Origin: Escherichia coli
GTDB taxonomy: Bacteria > Pseudomonadota > Gammaproteobacteria > Enterobacterales > Enterobacteriaceae
Reading direction: 5' to 3' (one strand)
Assembly: GCF_003334815.1 (NCBI RefSeq)
Contig: NZ_QOWO01000007.1
Length of the DNA stretch: 64,000 bases
In this document: one piece after another, positions 59,505-59,516 of the stretch
Position numbering within the stretch: position 1 is the first letter of the stretch
How the letters are laid out: the number at the start of each line of letters is the position of its first letter
Notes under the pieces: generated by a model
What the model saw: only the letters and a program-made list of their open reading frames with translations
Database searches by the model: none
Told to the model about the DNA's origin: nothing
Made by a program: the position numbers and the translations under genes

Positions 59505-59516
59505 TGTTAATTAACA
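59505..59516. promoter_or_regulatory. perfect 12-bp palindrome TGTTAATTAACA in aldA promoter region
   Basis: Seen about 45 bp upstream of aldA ATG; candidate dimeric regulator site. Confidence 0.25.

Follow-up and report, generated by a model that had tools for sequence, protein, structure and literature searches.

The perfect 12-bp palindrome TGTTAATTAACA upstream of aldA is very probably part of a known ArcA operator that overlaps the aldA core promoter, with its symmetry being incidental. aldA is a textbook ArcA-repressed gene. The ArcA site in front of it is already known, i.e., the same DNA is contained in the published genome-wide ArcA map (Park et al. 2013). Positions are given as those of the window, which is the whole 64-kb stretch of Escherichia coli DNA that was analyzed; the palindrome occupies 59505–59516.

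Results

A palindrome in the ydcF–aldA intergenic region

The 401 bp surrounding the palindrome match 5414 of 5426 complete E. coli genomes, with flanks annotated as ydcF and aldA; the locus is the ydcF–aldA intergenic region of E. coli. The aldA coding sequence (59560–60999, plus strand) encodes aldehyde dehydrogenase A with 479 amino acids. In its context, ...GATGATTGA TGTTAATTAACA ATGTATTCACC..., the palindrome has a dyad symmetry that ends at 6+6 bp, which confirms the perfect 12-bp palindrome described in a sequence-only reading of this DNA. That reading had placed it about 45 bp upstream of the aldA start, which is correct: the distance between the palindrome end and the ATG at 59560 is 43 nt, and the open reading frame is indeed aldA.

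We found 16 perfect 12-bp palindromes in the 64-kb window, compared with 15.4 ± 3.6 in mononucleotide shuffles. The palindromy of TGTTAATTAACA by itself is hence at chance level, and the symmetry alone carries no statistical weight. A role in RNA was discarded because the palindrome lies upstream of the transcription start (−13 to −2) and is thus untranscribed from aldA p1; moreover, a 6+6 palindrome without a loop cannot give a stable hairpin stem.

Further upstream, a GC-rich inverted repeat, GCCCGTTTG...CAAACGGGC (59370–59402), directly follows the stop codon of ydcF. This repeat, which does not vary among the E. coli sequences compared, is probably the ydcF terminator hairpin, although a simple terminator scan did not call it. 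One divergent strain, E. coli E302, carries a 13-bp tandem duplication, CTTTTATTTCTGC, after position 59412 of the intergenic region.

The palindrome overlaps the aldA core promoter

The aldA p1 transcription start is mapped to −42 from the ATG, i.e., to 59518 on the plus strand, both in RegulonDB (Limon 1997; Pellicer 1999) and by an independent mapping (PMC2760140). This agrees with the span of −10 to 33 that Park et al. give for 59508–59550. From this start we placed a putative σ70 −10 hexamer, GTTAAT, at 59506–59511 (plus strand, −12 to −7). It matches TATAAT at four of six positions and has the T at −7 while lacking the A at −11. A consensus promoter scan of 59300–59620 found no σ70-like site, so that the −10 assignment rests on the published transcription start. 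The scan also gave a single terminator-like hit, which spans the start codon of aldA on the minus strand and was regarded as noise. T59511 at −7 is 98% conserved in 59 Enterobacteriaceae promoters (from the best 80 of at least 584 matches), and in other genera among the matches listed a TAnnnT motif lies one base upstream of the E. coli −10. The σ70 ChIP peak of Myers et al. 2013 at genome coordinate 1486208 corresponds to 59512, i.e., it falls at the palindrome centre, with values of 306.7 under aerobic versus −9.35 under anaerobic conditions.

Given the location at −13 to −2, the σ70 peak centred on 59512 and the chance rate of palindromes of this length, the site might be nothing but AT-rich core-promoter (−10) DNA, without a regulator and with a coincidental symmetry and ArcA likeness. 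We regard this as very unlikely. The bases at −6 to −1 (TAACAA) have no known σ70 requirement, yet they are 83–100% conserved across genera with differing −10 hexamers among the matches listed, and a conservation phased at 11 bp (see below) reaches 30 bp downstream of +1 in the same matches. Moreover, aldA has an ArcA ChIP peak, a cited footprint, and a 36-fold ArcA-dependent repression. The idea of plain AT-rich promoter DNA, put forward in the sequence-only reading, thus holds insofar as the palindrome overlaps the putative −10 hexamer, but it does not account for the right arm, which belongs to the ArcA site.

A CRP-like site, TATGA-N6-TCACA with one mismatch, lies on the plus strand at 59451–59466, centred at −59.5 from the transcription start, and is conserved in orthologs. 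As it is located upstream and does not overlap the palindrome, CRP was rejected as the palindrome reader. In seven Enterobacter/Leclercia-type sequences the CRP-like site contains a perfect palindrome, TGAGATATCTCA; this was dismissed as a second palindrome because, equally far from the ATG (−108), it represents the CRP-like site of these orthologs. Position 59485 of the window, at −33 and inside the putative −35 hexamer (59483–59488), is a G (GATGCC), compared with a T in MG1655 (GATTCC). The G is also present in four other E. coli sequences compared; the T looks like a variant of K-12 MG1655, and the window does not come from that strain.

The right arm belongs to a published four-repeat ArcA site

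ArcA-P, a response regulator of the OmpR/PhoB type, recognizes direct repeats that follow each other every 11 bp (PMC3798270, PMC4173790). Its sites almost always lie over σ70 recognition elements, and repression by occlusion has been proposed (PMC3798270, PMC4173790). For aldA, Park et al. 2013 list a four-repeat ArcA site on the minus strand at 1486204–1486246, CTGTGATTTATATGTTTGTTTTCGGTGAATACATTGTTAATTA, whose sequence is exactly that of window positions 59508–59550 in reverse complement. The repeats are given at coordinates 1486243, 1486232, 1486221 and 1486210, with strengths of 3.4, 3.8, 0.4 and 12.5 bits, respectively. DR4, TTGTTAATTA (59508–59517, minus strand; 12.5 bits in Park Table S4), is the strongest of the four and takes in the palindrome's right arm plus one further base. 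DR3, CGGTGAATAC (59519–59528, minus strand), is weak with 0.4 bits in the same table, and DR2, ATGTTTGTTT (59530–59539, minus strand), and DR1, CTGTGATTTA (59541–59550, minus strand), have 3.8 and 3.4 bits there and 3.7 bits each with the 114-box matrix described below. DR1 adjoins the Shine-Dalgarno sequence AGGAG. The 5' ends of the repeats on the minus strand, at 59517, 59528, 59539 and 59550, are 11 bp apart in the same orientation. Comparison with mapped aldA regulator sites, proposed along with the sequence-only reading as a check, accordingly identified the right arm as a part of this published site.

The sequence thus combines a repeat with a TGTTA core, at least two repeats on the same strand about 11 bp apart, and an overlap with the transcription start and σ70 elements. 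Scored as a two-repeat 18-bp ArcA box, the aldA site reaches 10.3 bits here and 10.7 bits in the published list, which is low for the family because DR3 is very weak (0.4 bits).

In vivo data on aldA agree with this assignment. By ChIP-chip and ChIP-seq, Park et al. 2013 place ArcA peaks at 1486187 and 1486202, which correspond to window positions 59491 and 59506, and aldA is 36.1-fold derepressed anaerobically in an arcA deletion (Park et al. Table S6). The same table reports that anaerobic σ70 occupancy at aldA is reduced and that the ArcA site spans −10 to +33. For earlier ArcA-P DNA binding at aldA, the table refers to Pellicer et al. 1999. The literature thus documents that ArcA occupies and represses the aldA promoter, that σ70 is lost there, and where transcription starts; the DNase I-protected bases and the in vivo role of each repeat rest on secondary citation. 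The work of Pellicer et al. 1999 is said to be a footprinting and mutagenesis study of the aldA ArcA site.

A region of "anomalous" DnaA binding at aldA, with DnaA repressing the gene, has been considered as well, and the palindrome might be a part of it. Ozaki et al. 2001 is cited for in vitro DnaA binding and negative aldA regulation, and by eye we noticed GTATTCACC at 59519–59527, just downstream of the palindrome, with a seven of nine match to TTWTNCACA. However, the palindrome itself bears no resemblance to a DnaA box, and DnaA ChIP-seq found no association upstream of aldA, from which its authors consider aldA probably outside the DnaA regulon (PMC11317965). An explanation by DnaA is therefore hardly credible, and as the main explanation it was ruled out by the ChIP-seq result. 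The DnaA-box-like GTATTCACC overlaps ArcA DR3; judged by its sequence, it may relate to the anomalous in vitro binding.

Both strands of the palindrome read as an ArcA repeat

Lynch & Lin reportedly derived WGTTAATTAW as the 10-bp ArcA-P consensus. Its match TGTTAATTAA can be read on both strands of the 12-mer, and in the 64-kb window WGTTAATTAW is found only at the palindrome, on both strands, with 0.51 matches expected. A 15-mer consensus, GTTAATTAAATGTTA, and a repeat of the form ATGTTAAAAA-n-ATGTTAAAAA with the core TGTTA have also been described (PMC4173790).

We built a 10-bp repeat matrix from 114 ArcA boxes (Park et al. 2013, Table S3) with the aldA entry removed. With this matrix, ATGTTAATTA on the plus strand (59504–59513) and TTGTTAATTA on the minus strand (59517–59508) score 12.8 bits each, so that the two arms rank third and fourth among about 128,000 positions of the window. 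The plus-strand ATGTTAATTA is thus a mirror-image ArcA-like repeat that derives from the left arm. An in-phase partner was not found for it, i.e., no plus-strand element above 3 bits occurs at ±11 bp.

Elsewhere in the window, the best 18-bp ArcA-box hits are located at 27899–27916 (minus strand, 16.2 bits), 28028–28045 (minus strand, 15.1 bits) and 21500–21517 (plus strand, 13.4 bits). They have the sequences of the paaZ, paaA and feaB boxes, respectively (Park et al. Table S3), and the window carries several further known ArcA sites besides that of aldA.

Orthologous promoters keep the right arm only

We analyzed aldA upstream regions from a protein-guided aldA scan with one genome per species, using the best 80 of at least 584 confirmed matches. 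They comprise 59 distinct Enterobacteriaceae upstream regions and 21 from more distant Enterobacterales, a set in which close Escherichia relatives and Salmonella are unrepresented. All percentages below refer to the 59 sequences from these best 80 of at least 584 matches.

The right arm, 59511–59516 (TTAACA), is 92–100% identical, with a mean of 1.90 bits per column. In contrast, the left arm, 59505–59510 (TGTTAA), has a mean of 0.89 bits per column, and the E. coli bases are in the minority at four of its six positions; at 59504, 59505, 59507, 59509 and 59510 they occur in 20–32% of the sequences. Citrobacter has TATTAATTAACA, with TATTAA in place of the left arm, and Enterobacter, Klebsiella, Kosakonia and others have (A/G)nTTTTTAACA at the position of the palindrome. 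The perfect palindrome at this place was seen only in the two E. coli among the 59 Enterobacteriaceae, and Pantoea coffeiphila, one of the 21 distant Enterobacterales listed, carries it at a different offset from the ATG. The ArcA-like repeat ATGTTAATTA of the left arm was absent in Citrobacter, Enterobacter, Klebsiella and the other genera sampled among the matches listed. Conservation in orthologs, a check likewise suggested along with the sequence-only reading, is hence found for the right arm and not for the left across the 59 Enterobacteriaceae aldA promoters.

These data bear on the view that the palindrome is a true inverted-repeat operator, with a symmetric dimer of another helix-turn-helix regulator, possibly an inducer-responsive regulator of aldA, bound to both arms. 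Its perfect 6+6 symmetry inside a promoter would fit, as would its invariance in six E. coli sequences that are up to about 6% divergent there and vary in the neighbouring bases. Limon et al. 1997 reportedly described at least three regulators for aldA, one of them unidentified, which we counted for this view. Nevertheless, we consider it highly improbable, given that the two arms differ so strongly in conservation, that the palindrome occurs at this place only in the two E. coli of the 59, that 12-bp palindromes are found at the chance rate in the window, and that ArcA and the −10 account fully for the site. As a symmetric unit the palindrome is not supported, its left arm being unconserved outside E. 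coli among the matches listed and overlapping the −10 placed from the mapped transcription start; the sequence-only reading had named both kinds of observation as grounds against it. Of the dimeric-regulator operator suggested in the sequence-only reading, the operator DNA remains; its reader, however, is ArcA-P by way of direct repeats, not of an inverted repeat.

The left arm also contributes to an FNR-like sequence on the plus strand, TTGATgttaATTAA (59501–59514), centred at −10.5, on which an FNR dimer might repress aldA anaerobically. With TTGATGTTAATTAA it has one mismatch to TTGAT-N4-ATCAA (9 of 10 positions), and Myers et al. 2013 assign 12.61 bits to the site (1486197) and mention earlier reports of FNR-dependent aldA regulation. 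However, their FNR ChIP-seq shows no peak there and the predicted, unbound site is classed as "silent". With 5 one-mismatch FNR patterns versus 3.2 expected, the window holds about as many as chance predicts, and the TTGAT half is poorly conserved, with A at 59504 in 20% and T at 59505 in 24% of the sequences. Anaerobic repression is explained by ArcA (36-fold), and we therefore assign FNR as reader of the palindrome only a slight chance.

For the ArcA repeats the picture is different. Nearly all Enterobacteriaceae sampled have a minus-strand repeat of 9–13 bits at this position, and most Pectobacterium, Rahnella, Erwinia and Pantoea sampled also contain one above 10 bits, each among the matches listed. 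AC dinucleotides that are invariant or nearly so reappear in these matches at intervals of 11 bp, at 59514–15, 59525–26, 59536–37 and 59547–48, and these columns are the G and T of the four minus-strand repeats. Among the matches listed, A59525 and C59526 in the weak DR3 are invariant, and A59536 and C59537 in DR2 are 95–98% conserved. In the 59 sequences, the eight G/T columns have the highest mean conservation among 315 combinations of anchor and period; with the repeat that adjoins the Shine-Dalgarno sequence dropped, the G/T phase ranks first of 336. This phased conservation lends modest support to a four-repeat architecture at 11-bp spacing, independent of the E. coli matrix. Conservation at 59511–59517 may in part serve the −7 T and the promoter discriminator, and conservation at DR1 (59547–59550) may partly reflect the ribosome-binding site.

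Among the matches listed, an ArcA-like repeat of 13 bits, TTGTTAAAAA, is found on the plus strand at −33 relative to the ATG in most non-Escherichia Enterobacteriaceae. Together with the conserved repeat on the minus strand, it makes up an inverted repeat with 10-bp arms, TTTTTAACAA-N9-TTGTTAAAAA, in sequences L002–L058 at about −52 to −24 (window-equivalent 59508–59536). E. coli has lost TTGTTAAAAA, with CCGAAAACAAA there, and has a plus-strand repeat at −56, which is the left arm of the palindrome. Moreover, six Enterobacter/Leclercia-type promoters contain an extra ArcA-box-like tandem repeat (e.g., ATGTTGCCAATTTGTAAT) far upstream, at about −160 to −135, for which E. coli has no counterpart.

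Discussion

In the explanation that we favour, the minus-strand reading of the right arm, TTGTTAATTA, is the strongest of four ArcA-P direct repeats between −10 and +33, and the left arm overlaps GTTAAT, the putative weak −10 hexamer. When conditions are anaerobic or reducing, ArcB would phosphorylate ArcA, and ArcA-P would bind the array at 59508–59550; we infer that it nucleates on the near-consensus DR4. Bound ArcA-P would then occlude σ70 RNA polymerase from the −10/+1 region and switch aldA off. Aerobically the site would be free and the weak promoter, which would depend on activation, could fire, presumably helped by CRP upstream.

The perfect dyad symmetry appears from the sequence comparison to be an E. 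coli-specific, incidental by-product. The ArcA half-site core GTTAATTAAC is almost its own reverse complement, so that adding two suitable bases is enough to turn a consensus repeat into a perfect 12-bp palindrome. For E. coli, these two added bases fall in the −10 region. The symmetry would hence be perfect for two reasons: the half-site consensus (W)GTTAATTA(W) comes close to being self-complementary, and the −10 region reads TGTTAA in E. coli, compared with TATTAA or (A/G)nTTTT in its relatives.

By analogy with rcsD and acnB, two ArcA sites with repeats on opposite strands, the plus-strand copy may contribute to ArcA-P binding in E. coli. A further-reaching scenario, which we think rather unlikely, is that E. 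coli has converted its −10 region into a second, equal ArcA half-site on the opposite strand while losing the plus-strand repeat at −33. ArcA-P might then nucleate either way, or a dimer of the CRP/FNR family might under some condition use TTGAT-N4-ATTAA, which would add to the approximately 36-fold shut-off. If true, this would be a small lineage-specific turnover of binding sites and no new kind of element.

The significance of the aldA palindrome is slight beyond bookkeeping. It illustrates that a short AT-rich promoter palindrome can be the by-product of the near-self-complementary GTTAATTAAC overlapping a −10 element, and that comparison of orthologs tells the functional arm from the accidental arm. 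In addition, the comparative data back the four-repeat architecture that Park et al. had predicted for aldA bioinformatically.

Comparison with known systems places the aldA site among the multi-repeat ArcA-P operators (Park et al. 2013; icdA P1, astC, acs, fumA and others), where it is one of the listed four-repeat sites. It shares with them 10-bp repeats with a TGTTA core, 11-bp spacing and a mixture of strong and weak repeats. Like them, it covers −10/+1, with a proposed repression by occlusion in which σ70 occupancy is lost. Peculiar to aldA are two additional bases that complete the strongest repeat to a perfect palindrome, so that an equally strong repeat is present on the opposite strand. 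DR3 is unusually weak; otherwise nothing essential differs. The 10-mer consensus of Lynch-Lin and Liu-De Wulf is fitted perfectly by TGTTAATTAA on both strands. Of their 15-mer (as given in PMC4173790), the first nine bases match the aldA plus strand, but the second repeat is missing there, with AACAATGT where the consensus has AATGTTA. FNR/CRP-family inverted repeats resemble 59501–59514 in sequence, whereas this FNR-like sequence is neither bound by FNR in vivo (Myers et al. 2013) nor conserved in the orthologs compared. Similar in layout are rcsD and acnB (Park Table S4), which, like aldA, have repeats on opposite strands inside one ArcA-bound region. However, in rcsD and acnB these are separate elements at 11-bp phase, whereas the two aldA readings, offset by 4 bp, overlap almost completely, which precludes the usual kind of occupancy for both.
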